A DNA stretch of 40,824 nucleotides from the IMG/VR virus record IMGVR_UViG_3300004776_000003, positions 1 to 40,824 of that record. One strand, given 5' to 3'. The translations under genes were made by a program, and so were the position numbers. Under the pieces are notes generated by a model. It ran no database searches. It had not been told where the DNA came from and saw only the letters and a list, made by a program, of their open reading frames with translations. This DNA is from a virus (lineage: Duplodnaviria > Caudoviricetes). Shown here piece after piece: positions 3,807 to 28,600 of this stretch (position 1 is its first letter; every line of letters starts with the position of its first letter).

Positions 3807-4167
3807 AGAACAAAGTGTTGAACTCCTCAGCTCGAAATATGTCTCCCCTTCTCATGCCGACAACAAGGCCGATAAAGTCCTTGTGAGTGTTTTGTCTGTA
3901 GTTGAGGAGGCTATCAACCGGGGACAGTTCGAGCTGAAGGACATTGAAGCGATCTCCGCCGGCCTCATAGTTGTAGGACTCCGGGCTGGAGAGAAACAAC
4001 GAACTCGAAACAAGATCAATTCCGTAGACAAGCAAATCAACCGCATCATGCAGCTAATCAAAATTCGAGAAGAACTGGATGTCCAAAGGCAAATAAACAC
4101 GCATGTCAAGGACTTAGAATCTAAGATTGAGGCTCTAACAGAGGCATCCAAGAATGTCAAAAGTTGA
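3799..4167 (+). CDS. Candidate terminase small subunit (helical/coiled-coil), TTG start
   Basis: GGAGGT RBS (3789-3794) before TTG 3799; directly upstream of and overlapping TerL. Function inferred from position only. Confidence 0.4.
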   Translation: MPKEQSVELLSSKYVSPSHADNKADKVLVSVLSVVEEAINRGQFELKDIEAISAGLIVVGLRAGEKQRTRNKINSVDKQINRIMQLIKIREELDVQRQINTHVKDLESKIEALTEASKNVKS

Positions 4168-5881
4168 CGCAAAAACCCTCGACAAGTTATCCAAGGCAGT
4201 AGACGCTCTTGTTAATTTAAAGAAAAACACCCCTGAAAAAGAATACGACAACATGGCCAGATGGATTCAGAAAAACCTCTGGATAAAGCCCAAAGGTGGG
4301 GGGTTGCAACGATTTGTTTTGAATCGGTTCCAAAAGCGGTTACTGGCGGCTCTTGTCAAAAACTTCAAACAGAAGAAGCCGGTGAGGTTCATTGTCCTCA
4401 AGTCGCGGCAGGTTGGAATATCAACTCTTGTCGAGGCTTTCATGTTCTACTTACTCACCAAATACCCATCCACCACGGGCCTCGTCTTGGCCCACAGAAA
4501 TGATTCAACAAGGAACGTGTTCACTATAGCCCGCCGATTCTGGCAGAACCTCTCGAAGGAAGAGAAGATACCGCTGGAAGGCGGACGCCCGGCCAAGGAT
4601 CATATCGAGTTTATGCCACCGCACTCCTCGGCCTTTTGGGTAATGACTGCCGGCGGTGACGAAATAGGGAGAAGCTGGACACTGAACTTTGTCCACTGTT
4701 CGGAGATGGCCTTTTTCCCGAACCCCGAGCTTACACTCACCTCCCTCAACCAAGCCGTCCCTAAGCCCTCTGAGACGTGGTTCTCGATGTATGTGATCGA
4801 GTCCACGGCCAACGGCCTAAACCTGTTTAAAACCTACTGGGATTTAGCTAAGACGGAAGAGTCGGACTGGCAGGGTTTTTTCTTTTCATGGGTAGATGAT
4901 CCAGCTTGCTCGCTTGAACTACCCCCTGGCCAAGAGCTGAAAAAATCCAAGACAGAGATAGAGTTTCAACTAAAACATCACTGGACAGACGGACAGCTCC
5001 TATGGGCGAGAAAGACATGCCAGGATCAGTGTCATGGGAGCTGGCCGAAATTCTTCCAAGAGTATCCCCCGGATGAGCACACAGCCTTTATTTCCACCGG
5101 GTTCAACGTGTTCGATCCTGAGACTATAGGCAACATGAAAGACGTGGCTGTTAAGACGCCCTCGATCTTCACTGGAGAGATTAAGTTTCTGAGCGCAACT
5201 GAGCCCTACCCGAAACTCGTGGACACCCCGATGGGCTCTCTGACAATCTGGGAGAAGCCCGACACTAATGAAGAGTATGTCCTGGGCGTGGACTGTAGCG
5301 AGGGGATCGGCGCGGACTATTCGGAGATCGTTGTGCTCTCCACCAGAAAAGTGAAGGTTGTCGCGCATTACCGTAATAACCGCATCAAACCTCAAGATTT
5401 CGGTATAGCTTGCTGGCTCCTAGGGGCCTATTATTATTATGGGCTCCTGGGAGTTGAAAGAAATGCCGTGGGCCTTGTTATCCTGGCTGTAGTGGAACAC
5501 GGCCATGGGGATCGCCAGAAATACCCGCAGCTCCGTCGATATCCCAACCTGTATTACGAAACACCCCTGGATAAGAAAACCGTTGAAGAAGGGAACAGGT
5601 TAGGATTCAACACATCGAGAACATCTAAAAAGAATGCCATCGTGAGGCTGGGTGAGCTTATCTCAGACAGAGACATAAAGATATACTCTATACCGTTACT
5701 AACACAGCTCGAAGGACTAATATGGAGCCCCAAAGACGATAACTACATGCAAGAGAATAAAGACCCAGTCTCAGAACTATACAATGATGATGGTGTAATG
5801 TCATTATCTATTGCTAATGCAATGAGAGCATACAATTTTGGCAGAGGCTTCTGCCCCAAACCAACAAGGGAGGATTTCTAA
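4154..5881 (+). CDS. terL: Terminase large subunit
   Basis: LNRFQ, Walker A VLKSRQVGIST, Walker B FVHCSE, coupling motif ESTANG, nuclease YVLGVD..EG...DYS, VERN, DDGVMS. Confidence 0.92.
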   Translation: MSKVDAKTLDKLSKAVDALVNLKKNTPEKEYDNMARWIQKNLWIKPKGGGLQRFVLNRFQKRLLAALVKNFKQKKPVRFIVLKSRQVGISTLVEAFMFYLLTKYPSTTGLVLAHRNDSTRNVFTIARRFWQNLSKEEKIPLEGGRPAKDHIEFMPPHSSAFWVMTAGGDEIGRSWTLNFVHCSEMAFFPNPELTLTSLNQAVPKPSETWFSMYVIESTANGLNLFKTYWDLAKTEESDWQGFFFSWVDDPACSLELPPGQELKKSKTEIEFQLKHHWTDGQLLWARKTCQDQCHGSWPKFFQEYPPDEHTAFISTGFNVFDPETIGNMKDVAVKTPSIFTGEIKFLSATEPYPKLVDTPMGSLTIWEKPDTNEEYVLGVDCSEGIGADYSEIVVLSTRKVKVVAHYRNNRIKPQDFGIACWLLGAYYYYGLLGVERNAVGLVILAVVEHGHGDRQKYPQLRRYPNLYYETPLDKKTVEEGNRLGFNTSRTSKKNAIVRLGELISDRDIKIYSIPLLTQLEGLIWSPKDDNYMQENKDPVSELYNDDGVMSLSIANAMRAYNFGRGFCPKPTREDF

Positions 5882-6876: not shown

Positions 6877-7559
6877 TGGAGTCCGCTCCCAAATTGTCAG
6901 TAACCGAGGAGAAGGATGGCCTCCTTGTCCTCTCCTCCCCTGCCGCCCCCCGGTTCAAACTATTTTCCATGGGACTAGGGTATGCCGATCCAACTGTAGA
7001 CGAATCTCTTCATGCCTGCGTCCTGGCCGGCAAGACTTCGGATGATCGCATAATTATCATGGCTGAGTTTCTGGGAATCCTCGATGACGTGCTCTGGGAA
7101 TGTGTGAACCTGAAGGACAGGTTCCTCGTGAAGAGGTTGTGGGTTGACACGAGGGACAAGGAACTCCTCCGACTCATCCTGGATATGGACGGCCTCACCA
7201 AATACCGGAACCTGGGACTGGATAATTTCGGATCGCCTATCTACGAACATTTGGCAACAACCTGGCCTTGGTTTCAAAGTCGAGATACCCTCCTCTTTGT
7301 CACAGGCGTTCCAGGCTTCATCCAAGCCTCGCCACTGGGCGGAATAGATAGGCTCGTGGGAATGGTTAAGAAAGGTGAGCTTACGCTCCACTCGTCTTGT
7401 GGGCAGTGTGCGTGGATCCTCGATCAACAAACTGTCGGGGAGGTTATCAAGAGGCCACTGACGAAGGCTATGGTTTATGCCATTAATGGGTTCAGCTCCG
7501 AGGATGAGGCTGATAGGAAACCTTTTAAGCCGACAAACATTTATGGAAATTTGACATGA
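6876..7559 (+). CDS. Terminase RNase H-like nuclease-domain homolog, apparently lacking catalytic acids
   Basis: MGLGYADP...ACVLAGK..DDRIIIMAEF...WVD...GIDRL......L.LH..C...AMVYA follows the TerL C-terminal domain layout. Confidence 0.45.
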   Translation: MESAPKLSVTEEKDGLLVLSSPAAPRFKLFSMGLGYADPTVDESLHACVLAGKTSDDRIIIMAEFLGILDDVLWECVNLKDRFLVKRLWVDTRDKELLRLILDMDGLTKYRNLGLDNFGSPIYEHLATTWPWFQSRDTLLFVTGVPGFIQASPLGGIDRLVGMVKKGELTLHSSCGQCAWILDQQTVGEVIKRPLTKAMVYAINGFSSEDEADRKPFKPTNIYGNLT

Positions 7560-8374
7560 CTGCCTCACCAGATTGGGTAAAAATTTGTCGCTCCATTGAT
7601 AAGTATGGGGATGATCCTATTCGTCTAAAGGCATGGCTATATCTGATCTTAGATGCAAAATGGAACGGAACAGAAATTGGGACAATAACCACCACATGGA
7701 CGAAGTTGGCAATAAGGTGGGGGCTCTATACAAAAACAAGTAGAGGAGAAGTTCCCAACATCAACCAAGCCAAAAGACTTGTTAAAGAGATGGAGGAAGA
7801 TGGCCGAGTTGAGAGGTGTAAGCAAGTTGTAAGCAATGTGTCAGCAAAGTGTAAGCAAGAGGTGTCTTTATTGCTTATTAATTACGCTAACATACAAGGC
7901 AAGAGCGAAGAGGCTGTAAGCAATGTGTCAGCAAGTTGTAAGCAAAGTGTAAGCAGCGACGAGAACGAGCCGCTCCCAGTAACAGTTTTAGAGCCCCTAA
8001 GAATTAAGAAGAAAGAATTAAGAACTAATACAGAGAAGAATAAGAGGGGGAGTACAGAGGGGGAGGGGGAGCCGGCTTCGGCCTCGCCTTCGCCTATTGT
8101 TAAAACCGTAACCAAGAAAAAAGTCCTTTTGGATAGAGCCAAAATAAAAGAGATTTTAGACGAGATAGAGCTTAACTTGGACCCATTCAAAGAAATTTAT
8201 GGAAATTATCCTGTTTTAGATACCTGGGGATGGTTTTATGAGGCTTGTCTCGACGGTACAGCAAAAAAGCCCGGAGTTAACCCTTACAAGTATGTCAATT
8301 TTAGGGCCGCCTTTAGCAACTGGTTAAAGAAGGCGTACCCACTTGCATCAATTTCCGATGAAGAGGAAGACTAA
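7556..8374 (+). CDS. Phage replication initiator (lambda O/replisome-organizer-like)
   Basis: N-terminal WVKI.R.I...WLYLIL.A winged-helix-like region, internal iterons, C-terminal F.NWLKK; directly upstream of dnaB. Confidence 0.8.
   Translation: MTASPDWVKICRSIDKYGDDPIRLKAWLYLILDAKWNGTEIGTITTTWTKLAIRWGLYTKTSRGEVPNINQAKRLVKEMEEDGRVERCKQVVSNVSAKCKQEVSLLLINYANIQGKSEEAVSNVSASCKQSVSSDENEPLPVTVLEPLRIKKKELRTNTEKNKRGSTEGEGEPASASPSPIVKTVTKKKVLLDRAKIKEILDEIELNLDPFKEIYGNYPVLDTWGWFYEACLDGTAKKPGVNPYKYVNFRAAFSNWLKKAYPLASISDEEED
7817..7956 (+). repeat. Replication-origin iterons: 2 blocks of 4 x TGT(A/C)AGCA(A) with 11-bp period
   Basis: Copies start at 7817, 7828, 7839, 7850 and 7915, 7926, 7937, 7948. 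Partial inverted copy at 7871-7877; A-rich tract at about 7999-8045. Confidence 0.8.
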
Positions 8375-10318: not shown

Positions 10319-10606
10319 ATGCCGTATGAAAATGATGCCCCGATCCTGCATATTTGTGGGCTCTGGGAGAACGTGAGCAAGGCTGGAGACACTTACTTCA
10401 CTGGGACATGGGGAGGAGTTAAAGTCCTCATCTTAGTGAACAAAAATCCATTAGGTGAGAAGTCTCCCACACACACGATGAATTTTCAAGCTCTGTCAAA
10501 GAAGGAGAAAGAGGTTAAGAAAGAAGATTCCCCACGTTACGATACACACGATCCGGGGCCGGACTACCGAGAGTATAATGACAGAGGAGAGGAGATACCT
10601 TTCTGA
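10319..10606 (+). CDS. Probable small ssDNA-binding protein (DUF736-like) with SSB-type acidic tail
   Basis: GLWE..SK.G..YFTG core, C-terminal EEIPF. Confidence 0.55.
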   Translation: MPYENDAPILHICGLWENVSKAGDTYFTGTWGGVKVLILVNKNPLGEKSPTHTMNFQALSKKEKEVKKEDSPRYDTHDPGPDYREYNDRGEEIPF

Positions 10607-14866: not shown

Positions 14867-15129
14867 TCCCCAGACATCAACGCACATGCTTCACCTGCAT
14901 CTATTGGAGGCCTATATACGACGAGGATCTAGGCTGGTGTCACCTCAAACCTGAACCTATGTGGGTGCCCTCCAATGCCTTCTGCTCTCATGGCCAGTGG
15001 GAGTGGCTCTCAGATAGAGGCTACCTCTACGTTATCAAGTATGCCGATGAACCAGTGGTAGGGTTTACAGAGAAGGAGAAGTTGCCAGAGAGGGGGACGA
15101 GTCTCTACGAGTGGGACCCGCACCTATAA
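14863..15129 (+). CDS. Small Cys4 protein, HiPIP-like motif
   Basis: CFTCIYW...GWCHLKP...FCSHGQW. Confidence 0.62.
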   Translation: MIPRHQRTCFTCIYWRPIYDEDLGWCHLKPEPMWVPSNAFCSHGQWEWLSDRGYLYVIKYADEPVVGFTEKEKLPERGTSLYEWDPHL

Positions 15130-15518
15130 TGAGAGCTATTCATTGAGGCCCAGGGAATTAAGAGAGGAGTAAGAGGGGATTAGGACCGGACAACTCGTAA
15201 GACTCGTCGCAAGAAAGGAGACAGTAGTGAGAAGAGGTAAGTGAAGTTTGATTGAGCTGGACTTAACAATACAGATTGTATTAAGCAGCTTCCAAGAGAG
15301 TCGCTTGAGGAACAAGCTCCTATAACTCCTAATCTTTATGCTTGTCAAGGAGAAACTTCTGGAGCCCTATATTATAGACACTTTTTTCTTATTAGTAATC
15401 ATTACTGATAAGGCTGATTGTATAAGCATTATAGCTACATACCTGAATCTTAAGTATTCAGCGTGGTTTACTATCTAGTTGATATTAGAGATGTTTATTT
15501 TAGGTGGGGGGGCGTATC

Positions 15519-15698
15519 ATGGAAGAATTAAAAAAGCGGTTGGATATTGAGATAGAGAAGGCCGAAGCATTATGTGAGGAGTTTAGGACTTCGAACCTGG
15601 TGCTTGTAGCTCAAAATTATTTGGACGGGTTACTGAAGTGCAGAGAACTCATCAGGGAGATAGAGAAGGAGGAGCAAAGAGATGGAACAGAGAAGTAG
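15519..15698 (+). CDS. Hypothetical helical protein
   Basis: G-rich RBS; resembles the ELE family. Confidence 0.5.
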   Translation: MEELKKRLDIEIEKAEALCEEFRTSNLVLVAQNYLDGLLKCRELIREIEKEEQRDGTEK

Positions 15699-15858
15699 GA
15701 CTAATCAGAGCGATGGCATAGTTTATACGGAGGCCAGTAGTATAAAATTCAAGACTGACAATGAGGTGCTTCGGGACATGATAAAGGAGTTGGAGCGGAG
15801 GCTAAGTAAGGTTGAGGAGGTTGTTCGTAGCCTCAAATGTTTAAAGAAAGACGGGTGA
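15682..15858 (+). CDS. 58-aa coiled-coil protein (not in ORF track)
   Basis: GGAGGAG RBS; MEQRSRTN...IKELERRLSKVEE. Confidence 0.5.
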   Translation: MEQRSRTNQSDGIVYTEASSIKFKTDNEVLRDMIKELERRLSKVEEVVRSLKCLKKDG

Positions 15859-15859
15859 T

Positions 15860-16360
15860 TGTTCATTGTTCAAACAGCGAACAAACAAGTAGGCGAAAAC
15901 AGGTGGAATTCGGGACACGAGAACACGAGCCCCATTTCTAAGCAACCTTGGACTTTTTATATATAAGCGTACCGACAGGCTCAGGGGGGTCCCAGCCCGG
16001 CCTGGCCCGCCTCCCTGGACCTGGCTGCCTGGCCGCACATGATCCGCCCATGTAACACAGGCTAACCCTCGGCTATCCTTAATCATACGCAACGCAACGC
16101 ACAACGAAAGTCCTTCCGCTTTGATTGCCCATACTCGGAAGCACAATTTTCGGCCCAAAAAGTGCCTCGTTATGTCTTGGGTGACATAAGCCTATCAAAG
16201 TAGAGCTACACATTCCTCCACACATTCTTTTACACACACATCGTACGCGTACTAACTCCTTGTCCTACTACCTTGTGTCTACCTAGACATAGCAATCCTC
16301 CTCATATCCTTGTTCTTAGATGCAACTTTACCTAAACTTTATTTCCCTACATCCCTATAT
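15860..16360. other. Non-coding region, putative physical genome end / packaging-site region
   Basis: No credible ORF. TTATATATAA palindrome (15957-15966), GGGGGGTCCC followed by a GC-rich CCTGG tract, and a switch from G/A-rich to C-rich + strand near 15990. An early-type cassette follows. Confidence 0.35.
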
Positions 16361-16364
16361 TTTG

Positions 16365-16392
16365 GGAACTCTCAGGAAACCCCGTTGTCTAA
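16365..16392 (+). promoter_or_regulatory. ECF (sigmaE-type) promoter
   Basis: GGAACT (16365-16370)-16 nt-GTCTAA (16387-16392). Confidence 0.55.
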
Positions 16393-16588
16393 ACCACTAA
16401 AAGCCAAAAAAAGGAAACAAACCACACTCAACAACTTGCAACATCCAGTTAGCACCACTAGACAACAAGTCCTTAAGAGTTAGGACACCGTAACCTAACC
16501 TTAAATGTTACGGGATTATCGCAAGAGTAACAGCTTGCTTGATAAGGCCTATTGGGGCCGAAATAATCTAACCTTGAAAGGAAACACA

Positions 16589-16753
16589 ATGTTTAATCAG
16601 GACTTCACCATGGAGGAGTTTCACCGTATCATGTTGGATGCCGACACCTTGCTGGACTCCAATGACACTGACTACCTCGAAGCCGTTGCCGAAGCTGGTG
16701 ACTACTTGGACCGACACTTCATCGACTTCATCTCAACACCACTTACTTTTTAA
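16589..16753 (+). CDS. 54-aa acidic early protein
   Basis: GAAAGGAAACAC RBS then ATG 16589; strongly acidic. Confidence 0.6.
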   Translation: MFNQDFTMEEFHRIMLDADTLLDSNDTDYLEAVAEAGDYLDRHFIDFISTPLTF

Positions 16754-16786
16754 CATCCTCTAACACTTAAGAAAGGAAACAAGACT

Positions 16787-16966
16787 ATGGCAACAAAAGG
16801 CATGACTATCGAAAAAAAGGGTAACAGCATCCTTATTACTATTCCCGATGTAACGAAAAACTTTGGTCCATCAGCTTCCGGCAAAACTTTGATTATTGCC
16901 ACAACTTCAGGGGCCGAAAAGATTGATGGAATATCTGTCAACTTGAACGTGTATGTAGCGAAGTAG
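16787..16966 (+). CDS. 59-aa conserved small beta-rich protein (GPSASGKT...NVY family; not in ORF track)
   Basis: MATKGMTIEKKGNSILITIPDVTKNFGPSASGKTLIIATTSGAEKIDGISVNLNVYVAK; GAAAGGAAACA RBS. Confidence 0.75.
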   Translation: MATKGMTIEKKGNSILITIPDVTKNFGPSASGKTLIIATTSGAEKIDGISVNLNVYVAK

Positions 16967-17054
16967 TTAACTCTTGAAACCTTGCCCTGGACTTAGCTAC
17001 CAGGGCAATCTTCAGGTGTTAAAGCCTGTTTATGTCCCATTGAAAGGAAACACT

Positions 17055-18185
17055 ATGAGAATTCACAACAACGATCTTCAGGATGCCTTGAAGCGTATCA
17101 AGCCTATCGTATCCGGCAAGGTTTACTTGCCTATCCTTAACCATGTCCTTATTGAATCAACACCATCAGGAGCCGTTTACCTCTACGCAACTAACCTTGA
17201 CACTGGTGTTAGAATTCAACTCAACGCAAGCCTGGACCTGGATATTGAAACTGAATTCAGGCGGGCATTGCCTTATGAAGCCTTGAATTCTTTTAGTAAT
17301 AGCCTGGATGCTACCGATTCAATTAGGATCCGCAAGCCTATTGACGAACATTCTTACGCGTACATCATGGAATCAGTATCCGGATCAGCTTCAACTAGGA
17401 TTCAAACGATTCCAGCTGAAGACTTCCCAACGTTTGACTTTTACCACACGCCTGAAGGACATGATACTGGCACTGGTGAAAACACCGATATCAACATCCT
17501 TGCCGGTATCCTTTATTGTGCAAGTGCGGACGACTCCAGGTTTAACCTTAACGGGATCTACCTGGATAGCAAAACCAACTTGTTAGTTGCAACTGATGGA
17601 CACCGACTTGCTACGCGTACTATTCCACAGGTGTTTAACCAACTTCAGACACCAGTTATCATACCTAGGTCCGGGATAAAACACCTTGAAGTGTTTTTCA
17701 AGGGGACTTCAGGTTACATTCAAGGTTACGTCACAGCGAAGCGGATCATGATATCCAACTTGTCTCGAACTATGGTTTGGACTTGCCGCCTTATGGATGG
17801 TGAATATCCGGAATACAACAAAGTCATCCCTGTAGACTTGAAGGAAACTTGCACGTTGCCGGCAAAGGAAACAAGGAAGTTTCTCAAGGGATTAAATATC
17901 AGCAAGAAGGAATATGAGAAAAATAAAGGTGTCACCATCAAATCCAATTGTTCCGGGATTAATATCTTTCGTAAAGACTCCGAAGGTAACACCACTACAG
18001 GCAACTTCAAGGGAACATTTCCTGAAGACTTTGAGATCATACTCAACAGGAACTACCTCGTTGAGCTTATCGATCATACTGACAACTTGACGTTACTCAG
18101 GCAATCAGGTTGTTCAAGTGGTGGTCCCGTTGCTATCAAGTCTTTCAATGGCAATCTCGATATCCTAATGCCCATGAGGAAGTAA
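17055..18185 (+). CDS. dnaN: DNA polymerase III beta sliding clamp
   Basis: LPILNHVLIE, ATNLD, AEDFP, DDSRFNLNGIYL, VATDGHRLA, RLMDGEYP.Y.KVIP, N..YL, LMPMR; ATG 17055 follows GAAAGGAAACAC. Confidence 0.92.
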   Translation: MRIHNNDLQDALKRIKPIVSGKVYLPILNHVLIESTPSGAVYLYATNLDTGVRIQLNASLDLDIETEFRRALPYEALNSFSNSLDATDSIRIRKPIDEHSYAYIMESVSGSASTRIQTIPAEDFPTFDFYHTPEGHDTGTGENTDINILAGILYCASADDSRFNLNGIYLDSKTNLLVATDGHRLATRTIPQVFNQLQTPVIIPRSGIKHLEVFFKGTSGYIQGYVTAKRIMISNLSRTMVWTCRLMDGEYPEYNKVIPVDLKETCTLPAKETRKFLKGLNISKKEYEKNKGVTIKSNCSGINIFRKDSEGNTTTGNFKGTFPEDFEIILNRNYLVELIDHTDNLTLLRQSGCSSGGPVAIKSFNGNLDILMPMRK

Positions 18186-18186
18186 C

Positions 18187-18264
18187 ATGAGAGTTCTCAA
18201 CTGGACTTTGATGTTGTCCTTCATGGTGTATGTGTCTCTGGCCTATTACGCTAACAAAAAATAA
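18187..18264 (+). CDS. 25-aa hydrophobic peptide
   Basis: MRVLNWTLMLSFMVYVSLAYYANKK; GAGG RBS, starts just after the dnaN stop. Confidence 0.4.
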   Translation: MRVLNWTLMLSFMVYVSLAYYANKK

Positions 18265-18381
18265 CCTCTACCTTTTAACCTTCGGGATGGACCGAGTTCC
18301 ATCCTGGAATTAAGCGGTAAAGGAATCCGCTTTTATAAGCGCCGAGTGCGTTAAATACCAACATGGAAAGGAAACAAGACT

Positions 18382-18648
18382 ATGGCAAGATTTAGGGGAA
18401 CTGTCCAGGGAAACAGGAGCGAGGCCTCAAGGTTAGGACACAAACGCCTTGTGACATCATGCAACACATGGGACATAGGCGTTGATTGTCAGGCGTACAT
18501 CGATATGGGCGGCAACGATGTTATCGTTGTTTGGGTAACAGGCGGATCTCATAATGACACCAGGTTAAAACTTATTGCAACAGTGCGGAAAGTCAACGGC
18601 CAGATTGAGATTGAAACAAACGAGTCAGTGACTTCCCTTGCGGAATAA
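18382..18648 (+). CDS. Phage hypothetical protein (MARFRGTVQG.R..ASRLG family)
   Basis: GGAAAGGAAACA RBS; followed by a terminator. Confidence 0.7.
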   Translation: MARFRGTVQGNRSEASRLGHKRLVTSCNTWDIGVDCQAYIDMGGNDVIVVWVTGGSHNDTRLKLIATVRKVNGQIEIETNESVTSLAE

Positions 18649-18656
18649 CAACCACC

Positions 18657-18687
18657 ACCAGGGCGCCCTCCGGCCCTGGTTTTTTTT
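18657..18687 (+). terminator. Intrinsic terminator closing the early cassette
   Basis: ACCAGGGC/GCCCTGGT stem followed by a T-run. Confidence 0.8.
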
Positions 18688-18776
18688 CTTGCCTCCCGCT
18701 TCTCTCTCTTTCATCCGCAAAGACGAGGGCGATACGAAAGACGAGGGCGTGCGGTGGGCTATTGGAAGGAGACAAC

Positions 18777-19061
18777 ATGGACATAGCTAAGAAGCGAGTA
18801 ATCCTCCACATGATGAGAGTCCTAAACAAACTGGCCAGCTCTTCCGCTGAGGAATCAGTAAAAAAGGCAGCTCTTCAAATGATCGAGGACTTATGGTATC
18901 AGTATTTAGTGATTGAATCTTTATCAAAAGACGAGGACGAACCAAATGCCAAAAGGAAAAGGATCCAGAAGAAGGGAAAAGGACAGAGGGAAGTACAACC
19001 TGTTTCTCAGATACTCCCGCCTTATATTGATGCTGGAGGCATTAGACGAGTATCCAGTTGA
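18777..19061 (+). CDS. Hypothetical protein overlapping the recombinase start
   Basis: AAGGAG RBS before ATG 18777. Confidence 0.45.
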   Translation: MDIAKKRVILHMMRVLNKLASSSAEESVKKAALQMIEDLWYQYLVIESLSKDEDEPNAKRKRIQKKGKGQREVQPVSQILPPYIDAGGIRRVSS

Positions 19062-20418
19062 ACATGATGGAGCATTCATGGCCCGAGCACTATTGGCAAC
19101 TGGCCACACACGCAAAGAGATCTTCACATGGAAGACTGAGAATGTCTGGGAAGATTTCAACAAAGGCAAACAAGCACCTAAGATCTGCTGTAATGGCAGA
19201 GTGTGTGAAGTCATGCCCGAGTTCGCCCCATACCTACTCCTCAGAAAAGAGATGTGCCTTAAAACTTACCAAGAGTTCCTCTTCACTGATCCTGATGAGC
19301 TAGGCATAATGGATTTCATTAAGAGCCTGTTCAAAGGCATGGGGTTAAGCGATGACAATCACACATCCAGTCCAACTAACCGCCTACGCATGACAGCATT
19401 CGTAGCTTGGGCTGCACTACACAAACATGGGCGCCTGTTCCTGGCAACTCAAGCCGGTATGCCCTACGGTTCATTCGAGTGGATATTCAAAAGAAAACAG
19501 GAGGTAATAAGACTCTTTTTAGGTGGCCAGAAACCGAAGGCTGTTCCAGTAAATACTGCCCCGGCGTCTGGCCTGCCGACGAAAGGAGAACAAATCATGG
19601 AACCATTGAAATATTTCACGGATCCCGAGCTTTGTCAAATTTATTTGGCATTACCTATCCTAGAACGTAAAAGGAAGTGGCGGCGTGCTTGCTTTCTTGT
19701 GCGTTTGGCATTAGGCTCCGGGCTAAGATCAATGGAAATACGCCAACTCACCTACAATGATGTCCTGCTCGACGAGGAGCCACCTGTTCTTATGGTAAGG
19801 AACGGCAAGGGTGGCAAGGCTCGTCACGTCCAGGTTATACCCGAGTTCGCCCCATACTTAAGGGAGTGGGTCCAGAAGGGGAAATACCCCAATGCCCTAC
19901 TACTACCCTCCATCACAAAGCTAGGGGGCAGAGATCTCACGCCAAGGGGCCTGGCACATCTCTGGTACGGTGTCCTAGATGCCTGCAAGATAAGGAAAGT
20001 GGGCATTCATACAGCTCGACATACCTTTGCAACATGGGAGACTCAACGGTTGAACATGTTCCAGCTCCAGGCAGCTCTCGGGCATGGCTCACTGCTCACC
20101 ACATCAGCGTATTACGTTCATCCGATTATGGGCATGAACTACAACAAGGTACCCAAGTGGTACGCGACAGCCCTGGATCTCTATGACGACAATATTCAAG
20201 AAGTTGAGGACGTTATAGAGTTCAAGCAAAAGGTTATAAGTTACACGGGCTTAGAGCAAAAAGATTTAGATGTTTTAGCGGTGAACATAATAAAGCGTAA
20301 GAAAGCTAAGGTGATATCGCTAAGACTTAAAATTCTCAGGAGGGAGCGTGAAGCGAAGAGAAAGAAGTTGAATGATTTCTGTCAAAGCCGTAGATTAAAA
20401 GAGAAAAAGGAGAACTAA
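18946..20418 (+). CDS. Tyrosine recombinase/integrase with tandem catalytic-type domains (degenerate N-terminal, intact C-terminal)
   Basis: C-terminal domain has SGLRSMEI, GKGGKAR, HTARHT, LGH and TTSAYY. N-terminal half aligns to it but lacks key residues. Internal AAAGGAG-ATG at 19597. Confidence 0.85.
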   Translation: MPKGKGSRRREKDRGKYNLFLRYSRLILMLEALDEYPVEHDGAFMARALLATGHTRKEIFTWKTENVWEDFNKGKQAPKICCNGRVCEVMPEFAPYLLLRKEMCLKTYQEFLFTDPDELGIMDFIKSLFKGMGLSDDNHTSSPTNRLRMTAFVAWAALHKHGRLFLATQAGMPYGSFEWIFKRKQEVIRLFLGGQKPKAVPVNTAPASGLPTKGEQIMEPLKYFTDPELCQIYLALPILERKRKWRRACFLVRLALGSGLRSMEIRQLTYNDVLLDEEPPVLMVRNGKGGKARHVQVIPEFAPYLREWVQKGKYPNALLLPSITKLGGRDLTPRGLAHLWYGVLDACKIRKVGIHTARHTFATWETQRLNMFQLQAALGHGSLLTTSAYYVHPIMGMNYNKVPKWYATALDLYDDNIQEVEDVIEFKQKVISYTGLEQKDLDVLAVNIIKRKKAKVISLRLKILRREREAKRKKLNDFCQSRRLKEKKEN

Positions 20419-20419
20419 C

Positions 20420-20884
20420 ATGGCGAATGAAGCGATTATTGAGTTGAAGTATCGACATTGCGGCGGTTGTATCAACTACTATTATGGCCAGTGCATCTTG
20501 GAGCCTACTTGGAAGCCCGTGCCTCCCGAGCATCTGTGTGGACGAGGTGTGTGGATTGAGTGGAACGCTGATGCTGGACAGTTCGCAACCTTCTATCATG
20601 GTGAGCCCAAGACATTGATACCACCTGATGCCTTAACAGAAGCCCCACAACCTCACACTCCTGCCGTGCCTCACCCCGTGCCCGTAGAGGTCCCTGAGAG
20701 CGTCGTAGAGGCTGAGATCGAACAGATAAGGGAAGATGTAGCTCGAAGCATGGAGGCGCAGGAGAAGGCAAAAGAGAAGGCTACTCAACAAACACCAAGG
20801 GCGGCCCGAATTATGGCACCGCCCATGTCTCTACAGGAAATGATGGATTATCTCAAGAAAAACCCACCACCACCGAGGATTTAA
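20420..20884 (+). CDS. HiPIP-like Cys4 domain with Pro-rich and coiled-coil tail
   Basis: CGGCINY..GQCILEP...LCGRGVW; AAGGAG RBS; stop overlaps that of the convergent gene. Confidence 0.65.
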   Translation: MANEAIIELKYRHCGGCINYYYGQCILEPTWKPVPPEHLCGRGVWIEWNADAGQFATFYHGEPKTLIPPDALTEAPQPHTPAVPHPVPVEVPESVVEAEIEQIREDVARSMEAQEKAKEKATQQTPRAARIMAPPMSLQEMMDYLKKNPPPPRI

Positions 20885-23800
20885 CGTTGCTTGGGGGGCA
20901 TAACACTTAGTTGAAGTCTCAGGGAGATTTCCTTTTCGTGTTGAGCGAGAGGGAAGTCTCCTTTTTGGAGAGCGTTCAACATATTCTGCCAATGAAGTTG
21001 TGATTCTGCCGCATTGCTATTCTGTAATCTCATTATGTTTTGCATGTAATCATTAGGAACTGCCTTCATGCCAGTAAGGAAGTTGAGAGCTGCTGATTGA
21101 AGGTTGCTCTGCTCGGGGCGCTGTGGATCCAGTTCCTTACCCGTAGCCAGTCCATACCCCAAGTTTATTCCTGGCCTGACAATATCGTTTATGATACGGC
21201 CTCCTGGAACCTGCCCCATGGCATAATCTATTCCTGCTGGTATTTTCTGCCCTGCTAGGCTTCTACTTGCATAAGAGTAATCAGTATTGTCACCGAAGAG
21301 CGGGTTGAACAAAGCACCACCTGTTTGAGCCAGGCTGCCAGTCCTCTTTGCCATCTCAGATACCCTCTGATCTATAGGCCGGCCTGTCTTGGTGTCCACA
21401 TTTGTCATTAACGAAGGTAACATGGTTAAGGCTGGAGACAATCTTCCTACTGCCGCACCAAGAGTGGCCTTAGGGGAAGGAAAGTCTCGGAGAAGATCTG
21501 AAGGTTCCTGCACTGGACTGCTTCTGGCCATCATAAAGACAGAATTGCCCGGCTGATTCTGCATACCCATAAGACTTTTCACTGGTATGCCCATTATTCT
21601 GGTTGCCGGTTCACCTTGTTGGATGAATGAGCCTGCCGCCTCTTTCTCATTCTGTGGCATAGGTGTATTGAGATTTTCCTTTGCCAGTTCGTATCGGTTA
21701 AGGCGACGAGGATCTTCTAGAAGAGACTTACCAACAGACTTAACAGAGCCTTTTGTCCAGGAATAGAAAGGAAATGCTGGCCCCAGAAGTTGTTCAAATG
21801 GAGTCTTGGCATAATCAACCTGAGCTTCATTGGTGAACTGAATCGCTCGGTTCATAGCCGCTTCTCTTTCAGCCTGTGTGCCAAGTGTCCAGTTGGGCTC
21901 ATTGCGCTTCAGGTAGTCTATGGCCGTGGCCATTCGAGTGTTTCCTTCTGCCTTTGAACCCGCCCAAAACCCCATCTTCCCTAACCTACCCATCTCTTCC
22001 CCAGCCCTTGCTACTCCCCGCATCGCTCCACCTGCAATATCACCATACTTTTCCTGCATAGTATCTGCAAGGTTTCGCATCTTGCTACCATATTCTGGCG
22101 AGCCACCTCGAGAGACATCTCCCATAAAGGTATCGGGAGAAATGTTTCCACCTACTTTGGCATTCCTCCATGCCTCTCCCGCTGTGCCAGTAGTCTGTCC
22201 ACGTTCAGTGAACATGTTCCTTAGATCTGCATTACTCATCCCTTCAAACACAGGGGCGCCTCTTTCAGCCTCCACTTTACCAGCCTCAAATGCCCGTTTA
22301 GGTAAGTTATAAGCCGGCGTGCCATGGAGGTATTGAAATGCAAGGTTCGTAGGCACGTTGTTGGAAGTCCATGCCGGAAAATATGGAAGGACTGTGTTCT
22401 TCCACCACTGCGTATAGTCTTGGAGCGCACGGTATGGCCCCATGTTCTTGATATCTTTGTAGGGATCTGGAGCATACTGATTCTCTAACCAGTTGGCTAC
22501 TGTCTTGGGTGCCTGATAGCCTTTACCACCTGGCATGTCTTCAGACAAGGCACGCCAATTAGGTTTCGGGATCATGGCTTCACTGCCAGGTAAAGTATCG
22601 CTAGGTGCCATCCATTTCAAAGGATCTATGGCGAGATTAGGATCTATATTGCCATAATTAGGCTTTCGAATGAGGTTAGGATAGTCCTTGGAACCTTTAA
22701 CAATATCTGTCGTGCCTCTCATGTCCTTAGCAGAGGCCCGTGCAGGTATGTTGGGGTTAGAGATCATGCCCTGGCTCGTGGGTTCGATTAGGCCGAGCTT
22801 CTCAAGAGTGTCATAGAGCTTGTAATAGTTACTGGAGGGCATCTCCTGTTGAATTCCCTTGGTAAAGGCTCTCATGGGATTCATTTCCCAGTTGAGATAA
22901 GGTGCCATCTGCTGTTTGAGGACGAGGGGCGCCTGATGTTTAACCAGCTCCTCGCCAGTAGATGTATAGTAGGGAGGTGTTTCCCCTGAAAGAACCTCAT
23001 TGAACTTGCCGGTTCCTTTGATCGTTGGAAGGGGAGCATCTGGCGTCATCCTCACTCCAGTTCGTGGATCCATAGGATTGCCAACAGCTCGCACATTGCC
23101 TTCATTGTCTAGGAACTGGTAGATGCCTCGTGATTTGTCAGCTCCACCCGTGGCATCAAGCCGCACATCCTTGCCAGTGAACCAGTTCTTAACCCCAGTC
23201 CATGGAGGCGCCACGGGCTCTGCCATCTGGGGCATGTAATTCAGGTTATCTTCAGCAAGGTTCTGACGAGGTTCAACGCCGCGTGCTATTTCGGCTGCTC
23301 GTATCTCGTCACGAATAGCTTCACGTGCTGCTTTCATTTCGGATATGATGGGAATTATCTCTCCATAATGTTCCGGAACCTTGCCAGCCTGTGCCCATTG
23401 ATCGAGCCATTCAGGATTCTTGTATTTAGTTAACCAGTCCGTTGCGAGTTGAGACGTTACATCGCTCTTATCGAAGTGAGTTTTTAGCTCTCCTGGCACT
23501 ATTCCCTGTTTCATCTGTTGACTAAAGGTTACAGGGACATTGCCTAAATCTAATTGCTCTCTAAGAAGGGGATCCATCTGGCCAGTTTCGGCATATTTCT
23601 TTACCGCAGGTTCAAGGACATTCGGACGCTTCGGTATATTTTGGTTCCAATATTCAAAGGCTGTTGCAAGTTGAGCATCAGTAGGTGCCACGCCTCCTTG
23701 AGCTTCAGTTATCTTCTCGATAGCTGCTTTATAGGCTGGCTCCTTCTCCGCTGCCATCTTGAGAATAGACTCATTTGAGCCAACTCGTCGGAGTGTATCA

Positions 23801-26070: not shown

Positions 26071-27468
26071 TTACCAATAAGAATCCCAAGAATCGCCTGA
26101 ATTGTTGCTTGTTTGCCAAGGATCTATTGAATTGCCAGGAACTTCATAGTTATAGTCCCGGTTTCCGTAATCAGTGCTCCCTGTCCAGGAGTTCTGATAT
26201 TCTTCTGGCGTAGGGGCAAAGGAACCACTATCAGCACCGGCCTGGGCATCACCTAGCATTCCCATGTCTTGTAGCATCTTCTCATAGGCATCCTGTTCAC
26301 TCCAACCAGCCTCACCGCCCCAAACAATAGGCACATACTCGCCAGATCCTCGTCCCTCTCCTTGTCCTGTTAAACTTGGGCGAGTTAAGTCAAGTTGAGG
26401 CATTAGCTCTAGTTTTGTTGGAATATTTGCCGATGGCCCTAGTCCCGGAGGGCCTGATCCACCTCCACCTGAACCACCACTTTTCCCCCCGCCACCGGGA
26501 GGAGAGCCAGTACCAGTACCGCCACTGGGAGGAGAGCCTGTTGGCGGCAATGGCTTGTTAAGTTCATCTTTTTGTAGTTGAAATTTATCTTTCTCTAGTT
26601 GCATCATATCTTGCTGATATATTTGATTCGCAGCATCTCTATCTTTTTGTGTCTGAGCATTCGTCAGTGCTATCTGATAATTCTGATCCGCTATAGCCTT
26701 CTGTTGGGCTAGGTTTAGCCTGTTTTGATCTGCTTGCCAGTTTTGTTGATTAGTGGCTTGCCATGCTTGCCAACCTTGCGTCCCTAGTCTTTCTCCAGTC
26801 TGCCAACCTCTCTGTGCAGTATTCTCTCCGCTCTGCCAACCACGCTGTTTCTCACTTTCTCCAGCGGTGAACTCTCTACCAAGGACGTTCTCTCCAGACT
26901 GCCAGCCACGCTGAGTAGCAGCTTCACCAGAAGAGAATTGTTGTGCCGCTATACGTTCTGCCGTTTGTTGATCGAAGCCCGCTGCCTGTAAGGCGGCTGT
27001 TGCTGCCTGTTGTTTTGAATTCTGTTCAGCGGTAAATGATCTCTCTATACCCTTCTCATTTAATGTCCCGGCATTCATGAGGTAGTTAAGGGCATTAGTA
27101 TATCGAGTATCATATCCACCAGCCAGGGCATTAATAGCCTCACGTTGTAACCCTCCAGCATAGTTAGGGGCACCGGCAACATTATATCCACCACGCTGAA
27201 CTCCTGAGAGAGCTGCCCTTCTGACATAATCCTCAACCTGATTACGTTGGCCCGAAAGCATGGTATTTGTGAGGGTGTCCATCCTGCTTTTAAATTCAGG
27301 GGAGTTGGGATCTGTCCAGCCATTGGCTCCACCGTAAGCAGTATCAGAGGAAGATCCCGATGACATGGCACCACCTCCACTCATGAGAGTAGCCAAATCA
27401 GATGAGGACATATTCGAGGCACTGCCCCCTGCATTCAACGCTGCCATTATTTCTTCAAGTGTTGCCAT
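26071..27468 (-). CDS. Internal virion / pilot-like protein with 11-aa repeats
   Basis: QRGWQSGE repeats, Gly/Pro linker, GGGAG RBS. Confidence 0.6.
   Translation of the reverse strand: MATLEEIMAALNAGGSASNMSSSDLATLMSGGGAMSSGSSSDTAYGGANGWTDPNSPEFKSRMDTLTNTMLSGQRNQVEDYVRRAALSGVQRGGYNVAGAPNYAGGLQREAINALAGGYDTRYTNALNYLMNAGTLNEKGIERSFTAEQNSKQQAATAALQAAGFDQQTAERIAAQQFSSGEAATQRGWQSGENVLGREFTAGESEKQRGWQSGENTAQRGWQTGERLGTQGWQAWQATNQQNWQADQNRLNLAQQKAIADQNYQIALTNAQTQKDRDAANQIYQQDMMQLEKDKFQLQKDELNKPLPPTGSPPSGGTGTGSPPGGGGKSGGSGGGGSGPPGLGPSANIPTKLELMPQLDLTRPSLTGQGEGRGSGEYVPIVWGGEAGWSEQDAYEKMLQDMGMLGDAQAGADSGSFAPTPEEYQNSWTGSTDYGNRDYNYEVPGNSIDPWQTSNNSGDSWDSYW
26288..26385. repeat. Copy 1 of a 98-bp intergene repeat (56 bp exact)
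   Basis: 26288-26343 is identical to 28278-28333; the extension is diverged. Confidence 0.9.
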
Positions 27469-27481
27469 TTGTTATCTCCCT

Positions 27482-28600
27482 TTAAAGTCCCCACATATTT
27501 GTACTGCTTGTACCCCAAGAATTTTGATTTGTTTTTTGCATGTCATCAAGTGGTGTTGGGCTCCACGTATTACCCTTTGCCCCACTGCCCCACCCAAGCA
27601 ATGCTGATCTCCTAGATTGCTCTGATGTTTGCGAAGGAACCTCATACCCAGGATACCAACTACCAGCCGCTGCTCGTGATATTGGTGTTGTCACTTGTGA
27701 TGTAGGTGCAGGAGAAGATCCTGCTTGTGCGGGCTGTGGGTGCCAAATTGGATTCTCATTCCATGTAGGAGCGCGAGTAGTCGAGGGGGCAATATATGAT
27801 GGAGAAGCCGGTCCGGATGTTTGAGTGACCGTAGGGTTTTGTTTTTCCGTAGGTGGGGGCGGAGCTATTACATTGCCATATTGTTGCCAGTTGCCGCTTG
27901 CTCTCTCAGCTTTAGAAAACAACCCGGTGTCTTGAGATATTGGAGTTGCAGGCGAAGAGTAAGGCTGATTCCTATAGGCACCACCTTCTGGTAATCCAGT
28001 ATTTTTATAAGCATCTTGAACCTGAGTTTGTGTAGGTGGATTGTTATTAGCCATACTATTAACGTAATCCAAAACCTGAGTGTCTCCGGTTGTGGGTTGA
28101 AATGAACCTAAATCTGATCCAAATTGTGCATTTGCAAGAGCTTGGGCATCTTCCGCTTGGTTTAATTGGGATGCTCCAGGCCCATTAGTCCAAGAATTCA
28201 TTTCATTGTCTAGTGATCGAGGTTGATCCTTCCACTGTTGAGGAGGATCAGGGTAAAGAGAATTAAGTTTATCTCTTGCATCCTGTTCACTCCAACCAGC
28301 CTCACCGCCCCAAACAATAGGCACATACTCGCCGCTTCCTCTGCCGCCACCTTTACCCTGTAAACTTGGCCGAGTAGCGTCTATCATAGCTTGATAAGCC
28401 TGATTTGCTTTATCAATTCCTTGTTGTCCTTGGGGAATACCTTTCTCGTTTCCTCTCCAACCAGGACGATACTTATCCATCCACTGCCAAGCAGAGTTTT
28501 TAGGTGGCCCACCAACATCAGGAAACATTTTGTCTGTTAGTGCTCTCTCACCCCCGTTATTCCAATTTATTGTATTACCTATACCCCTTATGTCTGCCAT
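27482..28600 (-). CDS. Low-complexity P/Q/S/T-rich virion-associated protein
   Basis: 372 aa between the nozzle and the ejection genes. Confidence 0.55.
   Translation of the reverse strand: MADIRGIGNTINWNNGGERALTDKMFPDVGGPPKNSAWQWMDKYRPGWRGNEKGIPQGQQGIDKANQAYQAMIDATRPSLQGKGGGRGSGEYVPIVWGGEAGWSEQDARDKLNSLYPDPPQQWKDQPRSLDNEMNSWTNGPGASQLNQAEDAQALANAQFGSDLGSFQPTTGDTQVLDYVNSMANNNPPTQTQVQDAYKNTGLPEGGAYRNQPYSSPATPISQDTGLFSKAERASGNWQQYGNVIAPPPPTEKQNPTVTQTSGPASPSYIAPSTTRAPTWNENPIWHPQPAQAGSSPAPTSQVTTPISRAAAGSWYPGYEVPSQTSEQSRRSALLGWGSGAKGNTWSPTPLDDMQKTNQNSWGTSSTNMWGL
28278..28375. repeat. Copy 2 of the 98-bp intergene repeat
   Basis: Encodes the TRPSL..G.GRGSGEYVPIVWGGEAGWSEQDA motif present in both genes. 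Confidence 0.9.

Follow-up and report, generated by a model that had tools for sequence, protein, structure and literature searches.

A phage gene that joins a likely inactive and a complete tyrosine recombinase catalytic domain in one chain, with an internal start signal that a predicted RNA hairpin would conceal

The window analyzed here, a stretch of 40,824 nucleotides, holds most of a phage genome, with HU, RecT, an exonuclease, a RuvC-like resolvase, terminase, an initiator, DnaB and a beta clamp, and further encodes SU10 adaptor, tail and ejection genes. On its plus strand, the ORF at 18946..20418 is translated into 490 amino acids without a stop, and the open frame and its relatives identify it as a fused tyrosine recombinase gene. 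Seven loci with this gene were compared: five are identical to the window, and the other two (L003 and L005) have a variant in common that differs from it at 70 bases. The DNA comparisons below therefore cover two DNA types only, neither of them from the second protein clade (clade 2), for which searches recovered no DNA, as was also the case for a single-domain relative, P0018. Upstream on the same strand, an intrinsic-terminator-like hairpin with a T run (18657..18688), kept in L003 with a different sequence, closes a block of early genes. It is followed by an 11-bp motif that occurs twice in direct orientation (18721-18731 and 18739-18749, together 18721..18749, plus strand), a candidate operator or target of which both copies are kept in L003 with a different spacer. 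A motif search located a third copy on the plus strand at 18929..18939, with one mismatch in the window and none in L003, which overlaps the SD of the long start.

A small upstream ORF of 94 amino acids (18777..19061, plus strand), for which no PHROG, Pfam or PADLOC family was found and in which only about the first 56 codons appear to be functional, overlaps the recombinase start. In the overlap, the five base changes in codons 1-39 of the recombinase are all synonymous (5 synonymous, 0 nonsynonymous), and all are nonsynonymous in the frame of the small ORF (0 and 5), which supports the start at 18946. Two alternative starts of the long form were rejected. That at 19030 lacks an SD, and 18946 is favored over both 19030 and 19078 by the synonymous-only changes in codons 7-11 and by the first helix of the N-half, which matches that of the C-half. 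Directly 3′ of the recombinase gene lies a 154-aa ORF (20420-20884) with a Cys-rich N-terminus and no family, which is 92% identical in L003 and has a strong SD that is predicted to be exposed.

Four segments can be distinguished in the protein, all encoded on the plus strand. The N-half (residues 1-194, 18946..19527) consists of a basic tail and a catalytic-type recombinase fold, as supported by alignment, a structural model and selection. It is followed by a linker of 23 residues (19528..19596), which takes the place of the linker between the core-binding (CB) and catalytic (CAT) domains of canonical enzymes in the alignment. The C-half (residues 218-400, 19597..20145) is a catalytic domain according to Pfam PF00589 and the alignment, and the C-terminal extension (residues 401-490, 20146..20418) ends in a long basic helix with 19 Lys or Arg among the last 45 residues. 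For this extension no family match was found, and its dN/dS is 0.08. An earlier note, made from the DNA letters alone, had already pointed to the basic C-terminal helix and had seen neither an arm-binding nor a core-binding domain; the latter is supported by the CAT-like N-half and the absence of SAM-like Pfam matches at E values up to 1.

Pfam PF00589 (Phage_integrase) matched the protein once, at residues 241-392, with 60.6 bits against a cut-off of 27.1, and PHROGs and NCBIfam agreed with this. The best NCBIfam matches of the C-half were XerA/XerC, far under their cut-offs, and a Foldseek search with a low-confidence AlphaFold model gave XerH, XerA and Cre as top matches. In the alignment, the R-K-H-R-H pentad and the Tyr nucleophile are complete (R261, K288, H355, R358, H380 and Y389 or Y390, together with E264). 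By sequence, the C-half is thus a tyrosine recombinase that consists of the catalytic domain only and keeps every catalytic residue.

The motif pairs that the earlier note had drawn between the two halves are present and in register, although the last motif can be aligned in more than one way. The N-half finds its own C-half by BLASTP with an E value of 6e-4, and the local alignment score of 57 compares to 30 ± 4.7 for shuffled sequences, which reached it in 2 of 2000 cases and, in a second run, in none of 1000. For clade 2 the similarity is weaker (39 and 86 per 1000 shuffles reach the score), and masking of the PEF motif gives 11 and 94 per 1000. The likeness between the halves is real, if modest. 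The 18-bp identity between 19216-19233 and 19840-19857 reported earlier is exact and has a chance of 0.0024 given the identical PEFAPY, but it is not conserved: its second copy carries two synonymous changes in strain L003, and the N-half of clade 2 reads PEFGRY in place of PEFAPY. The identity was therefore rejected as a functional element.

In register with the C-half, the N-half has T55 at the position of Arg-I and N145 at that of His-II, M172 (Leu in clade 2) and F181 occupy the positions of the last His and the Tyr nucleophile, and only Glu58 and Arg148 (Arg-II) are kept. The catalytic losses listed in the earlier note are hereby borne out, and the beta2-beta3 Lys loop is deleted as well. 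Automatic alignment chose another register for the last motif, in which H161 pairs with H380 and A170 stands at the Tyr position. This pairing, the invariance of R56, R148, H161 and Y174 in the N-half and the precedent of IntDOT, in which Arg-I is replaced by another arginine according to the accessible part of PMC8138268, are what speaks for a rearranged active site, so that the protein would be a fused XerC/XerD-like heterodimer with two working halves. This is very improbable: the deleted Lys loop and the Asn at His-II argue against it, neither register has a Tyr at +9, the pentad and Tyr stay incomplete in both, and the helix boundaries favor M172 and F181 as the His and Tyr positions. The N-half is more readily understood as an inactive, dead domain.

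Searches with the N-half against Pfam (residues 1-217), PHROG, NCBIfam and PDB sequences gave no match, HHalign did not detect a recombinase (probability 0.6%), and an HMM of nine homologues did not detect it either (-2.4 bits). In the ESM Atlas, in contrast to HHalign, a relation was apparent. Residues 1-200 resembled integrase clusters of 180-190 aa with 0.97 by features, and the Atlas model of residues 12-200 matched recombinase catalytic domains with TM scores of 0.63-0.70 over 152-172 residues in 10 of 10 rows, three of which reach the bar for PF00589, while five lie under it and two have no family. AlphaFold2 models from alignments of nine and four sequences had pLDDT values of 37.5 and 37.0 and were uninformative, as was a Foldseek/VIA search with the N-half model that returned only generic helical bundles; they were not counted against the fold. 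A recombinase CAT fold of the N-half is likely, mainly on the strength of one source, the ESM Atlas.

The nearest single-domain relative, P0018, has 207 aa, is 41% identical and shows the same basic N-tail and PKW end. In a tree, the dead halves are placed on a very long branch at the side of P0018 and their own C-halves (86/98), and monophyly of the dead halves with their own C-half was neither rejected nor demonstrated (AU p 0.15); in this tree, the row of P0022 was cut wrongly. Minimal recombinase clusters of ~170-190 aa (169-187 aa in the Atlas) are common in phages, and both halves resemble them. The N-half is likely an inactive copy of the recombinase fold.

Sequence-database searches confined the N-half to two 90% clusters, and the gene occurs in freshwater or lake metagenomes (at least 10 samples, three of them flagged as a possible source). 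In 14 of the 16 cluster members the frame runs through the junction with no stop, and none is split; the other two are C-half fragments on contigs of 1.1-1.5 kb that begin downstream of M218. Contigs assembled from the public runs X4, X5, X6 and X9 bridge the junction without gaps (substitutions were compared in 40 of 114 rows); runs X7 and X10 gave no such contigs. None of 34 candidates was a shorter, separate N-half, and neither a separate nor a more distant one was found in plasmids, GTDB genomes or further IMG/VR contigs. A search of 1.84 billion representatives returned the clade-2 protein P0003 and one 20-residue match in a 2604-aa protein, which was taken as chance. No Atlas cluster with at least 50 members aligned across both halves, and among the best 20 of 47 records from cultured phages none covers more than 42% of the protein and none 80%. 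The strong SD and the Met exactly at the boundary do resemble the start of a separate gene, and a one-off read-through or an assembly error that joins two genes had been named as the outcome that would overturn the fusion. This has next to no probability: the fusion is present in both clades and recurs in assemblies made independently, no separate genes or stop near the junction were seen in relatives or reads, and the linker is identical between the clades in 20 of 23 residues. The artefact reading is refuted by the relatives; the fusion is real, conserved and rare.

The two clades are 85% identical, and identity by segment is 34/39, 125/155, 20/23 (linker), 162/183 and 75/90. Within the dead half, conservation is highest in residues 142-194, from the HxxR helix onward (49/53). 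Compared with the L003/L005 variant, dN/dS (uncorrected) is 0.052 for codons 1-194 (21 synonymous and 4 nonsynonymous changes) and 0.044 for the live domain (28 and 4). Codon changes of this kind indicate that the dead half is under purifying selection, with a dN/dS of about 0.05.

At the domain boundary, an internal SD (19582-19588) precedes an in-frame ATG at 19597, which codes for M218 and would give a product of 273 aa (SD and start, 19582..19599, plus strand). As claimed before, this AAAGGAG is strong: it scores -8.7 kcal/mol, like the genuine starts at 10319 and 20420, and of the 167 internal ATGs found within 14 other ORFs, only 2 follow an SD of equal strength. All 14 junction-spanning members keep M218 and read KGEQ[IV]M; M283 also has an SD (-8.1). 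RNA folding predicted a stem-loop of 76 nt and -33.4 kcal/mol (19513..19588, plus strand), the 3′ arm of which holds the internal SD, paired with 19513-19520. The predicted unpaired probability of the SD was 0.02-0.03 with at least 100 bases upstream and 0.6-0.8 with only 60-80, and only two of the 45 AAGGAG motifs of the window are predicted to be more occluded than this one. The earlier proposal of two isoforms therefore stands with respect to the strong SD, but not to a freely made short form, as base pairing within the long mRNA is predicted to mask this SD.

Several comparisons bear on whether this hairpin is selected. In a synonymous-codon null, the SD was unpaired at 0.39, 3 of 1000 re-codings hid it as well and 32 of 1000 folded as stably. 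The z-scores were -3.4 and -4.6 in tight windows, picked after the fold had been seen, and -1.5 and -2.0 in wider ones, and in a sliding scan the overall stability ranked 8th of 42 windows in the gene. L003 has no synonymous change in codons 190-215 against 3.9 expected (P 0.014); as a free scan for the longest substitution-free gap, P was 0.11. The single change in runs X6 and X9 (19566) falls on an unpaired base of the predicted hairpin. An Rfam search of 15100-21000 gave no match. Since the outer arms encode invariant residues, their conservation could reflect constraint on the protein as well as on the RNA. Taken together, the folding and substitution data are suggestive of a selected, functional hairpin that hides the SD, and two isoforms, with the short one gated or silenced by the predicted hairpin, are plausible.

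The silencing could also be complete. The gene would then have one product of 490 aa, and the SD would be a relic of an ancestral two-gene operon that the hairpin is kept to silence. The predicted occlusion is nearly complete, no promoter-like site was found between the 5′ arm and the SD, the K-G-E codons could keep the SD through protein constraint, and SD hiding has a precedent in IS200, where the strong transposase SD is sequestered in a stem in a different enzyme family (PMC4513863, accessible part). However, a single synonymous change would suffice to remove an SD that is not wanted, at less cost than keeping a 76-nt stem, M218 is invariant, and elongating ribosomes must cross the 5′ arm. 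A single product is therefore rather unlikely, and a gated short form is preferred here.

Tyrosine recombinases are taught as tetramers of subunits with core-binding and catalytic domains, in which half-of-the-sites activity is set allosterically. With the simple enzymes XerA, XerC/D, XerH and Cre (PF00589) the C-half shares the catalytic fold and R-K-H-R-H-Y. Unlike these, the phage protein has no core-binding domain, a degenerate catalytic-type domain sits there instead, and a 90-aa basic extension and an internal start are added. Minimal catalytic-domain-only recombinases are represented by FimB and FimE. The 169-187 aa clusters and P0018 likewise lack a CB domain, but are single, whereas here the domain is doubled with one copy degenerate. 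Tn5 makes two in-frame products of one gene, Tnp and the short form Inh, which is the inhibitor; the in-frame pair is similar, but Tn5 belongs to another enzyme family and the phage short form would be purely active. The Thermus P23-45 integrase was rejected as a parallel, as it is an ordinary enzyme of 327 codons. In the accessible part of PMC8138268, groups of tyrosine recombinases are defined as CB+CAT or AB+CB+CAT, and Xer, Brujita, RitA-C and TnpA are listed as simple ones. The phage protein fits neither group as described there: the core-binding domain that is N-terminal to CAT in simple enzymes is missing, and compared with arm-binding integrases both the arm-binding and the core-binding domain are absent.

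Combining these observations, the model that we favor, although at somewhat less than an even chance, is a single-chain pseudo-dimer that exchanges one strand pair per synapse, with a gated short isoform. It builds on the observed fusion, residue losses, selection on both halves and absent core- and arm-binding domains. The gene may have originated by tandem duplication of a minimal recombinase of about 200 aa. The dead copy would grip one half-site while the live copy cuts the other, and the dead half might give the affinity and subunit contacts that otherwise come from the missing core-binding domain; because the family is catalytic-domain-only, a second copy can add binding surface. In Cre and lambda Int, neighboring subunits touch via the C-terminal helix, which would make a head-to-tail fusion feasible. 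A synapse of two chains would have two active sites only, so that one strand pair would be exchanged, and the Holliday junction could be left to replication or to the RuvC-like resolvase of the phage. During CTXphi integration, according to the accessible part of PMC3442271, XerD is purely structural, one strand pair is exchanged and the junction is resolved by replication. One catalytic and one structural subunit are likewise proposed for the fusion; in CTXphi, however, these are intact, separate host proteins and the asymmetry comes from the DNA site, whereas the fusion would build it into one polypeptide. Hard-wired asymmetry is thus a predicted property that it seems reasonable to infer.

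With its SD paired as predicted, the internal start would be off by default. It could become active when translation of the long frame opens the 5′ arm, or be used on a transcript that is shorter, which would yield a limited amount of the 273-aa active-only form. A further extension of the model, that the long form stops after one exchange, the metered active-only subunit completes or reverses it and the isoform ratio sets direction without arm sites or an excisionase, is improbable.

Dead recombinase folds have been found in other roles. MrpR/YopR of SPbeta, a recombinase fold minus the catalytic Arg and His, is a phage repressor that binds DNA (PMC10516654, accessible part); TnsF of Tn6022/Tsy (PMC10293859, accessible part) and Tfp/GinC of SE/GInt elements (PMC10214605, accessible part) are inactivated folds that serve as DNA-binding helpers beside an active recombinase or transposase. 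The long form might similarly act above all by binding DNA, as a repressor or inhibitor, and recombination would then fall to the short active-only form, set free once the hairpin has opened. An MrpR-like dead domain could possibly bind the three 11-bp repeats, which cover the leader and the SD of the long start, are all perfect in L003 and occur with at most one mismatch only in the leader of this operon. That 170-190-aa recombinases are common in phages and that no other repressor was recognized would fit. The repeats could, however, bind the small ORF product or a host factor instead, the 10 matches at two mismatches are near chance (mean 5.9), and an intact active site in the same chain would be superfluous in a repressor. 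MrpR-like repressors bind an operator that is repeated across the phage genome; three local copies of the 11-bp motif were found here. PF22823 (MrpR) did not match the phage protein at E values up to 1. As described in the accessible parts of these papers, MrpR is a stand-alone CB+CAT protein with no active partner domain, whereas the phage protein has an intact C-half and no CB; TnsF and Tfp/GinC are products of separate transposon genes with core-binding domains that are not fused to an active enzyme. Repression by the long form is unlikely, to about the same degree as a single product. These two readings and that of an active N-half share the same anatomy and are partly compatible.

No description of a natural fusion of a dead and a live CAT domain was found in the accessible full-text literature, outside of which most subscription papers lie; dead and live CAT in one chain would be what is new. 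A selected fusion of this kind without a core-binding domain would be evidence that a gene can itself fix the asymmetry, and recombinases for non-palindromic sites could be built on it as a natural scaffold, while the predicted SD-hiding hairpin bears on whether one recombinase gene meters two forms. The weight of the case is limited by its rarity (two 90% clusters from lake metagenomes) and by the dead folds already known as separate proteins.

An identical overlapping contig (L008) adds 8,439 bases that encode a DGR together with a portal and a capsid of SU10 type. Enrichment of DGRs among temperate phages has been reported (PMC6199706, accessible part), and on this basis a temperate life is inferred as probable. 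A six-frame search of the window and extension (49.3 kb, with a genome gap beyond the RT) found one tyrosine recombinase. As the only one found in a probably temperate phage, its role is most likely integration and excision or the resolution of genome multimers. No repressor, attP or tRNA was recognized, PADLOC gave no match, GTDB genome scans gave no integrated copy or relative, and the contigs from public runs contained no phage-host junction. In the window, no palindromic or dif-like site above chance was found: 14 palindromic candidates compare to 10-18 in shuffles, none of them unchanged in L003, and the best dif match has 15 of 22 arm matches to the E. coli consensus.

Several further features of the genome were observed. 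The DGR in L008 (L008:16811-18698, beyond window position 1) looks complete, with an Mtd-like gene, an RT cut by the contig end, and VR (17787-17909) and TR (17970-18092) that are 78% identical; the SU10-type portal, scaffold and capsid lie upstream. The initiator gene (7556-8374) contains two arrays of an iteron-like 11-bp repeat at 7806-7966 beside DnaB, by arrangement a lambda O/P-type origin. L003/L005 lack the beta-clamp gene (17055-18185), apart from a short remnant of its start, and two small genes (window 16410-18390 vs. L003:7170-7440); the small gene that follows has been exchanged for another, and the breakpoints lie at repeated RBS-containing motifs. A direct repeat of 98 bp (26288-26385 and 28278-28375, 86% identical, the first 55 bases fully so) is common to two neighboring ejection-type genes and appears to be a recent duplication or conversion. 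The large terminase (4154-5881) is encoded on the plus strand, in the midst of genes for recombination and replication, and its orientation is opposite to that of the portal and structural genes. Finally, a long non-coding stretch at 15900-16500, with conserved blocks and short repeats ahead of small early genes, is a possible genome end or early promoter region.
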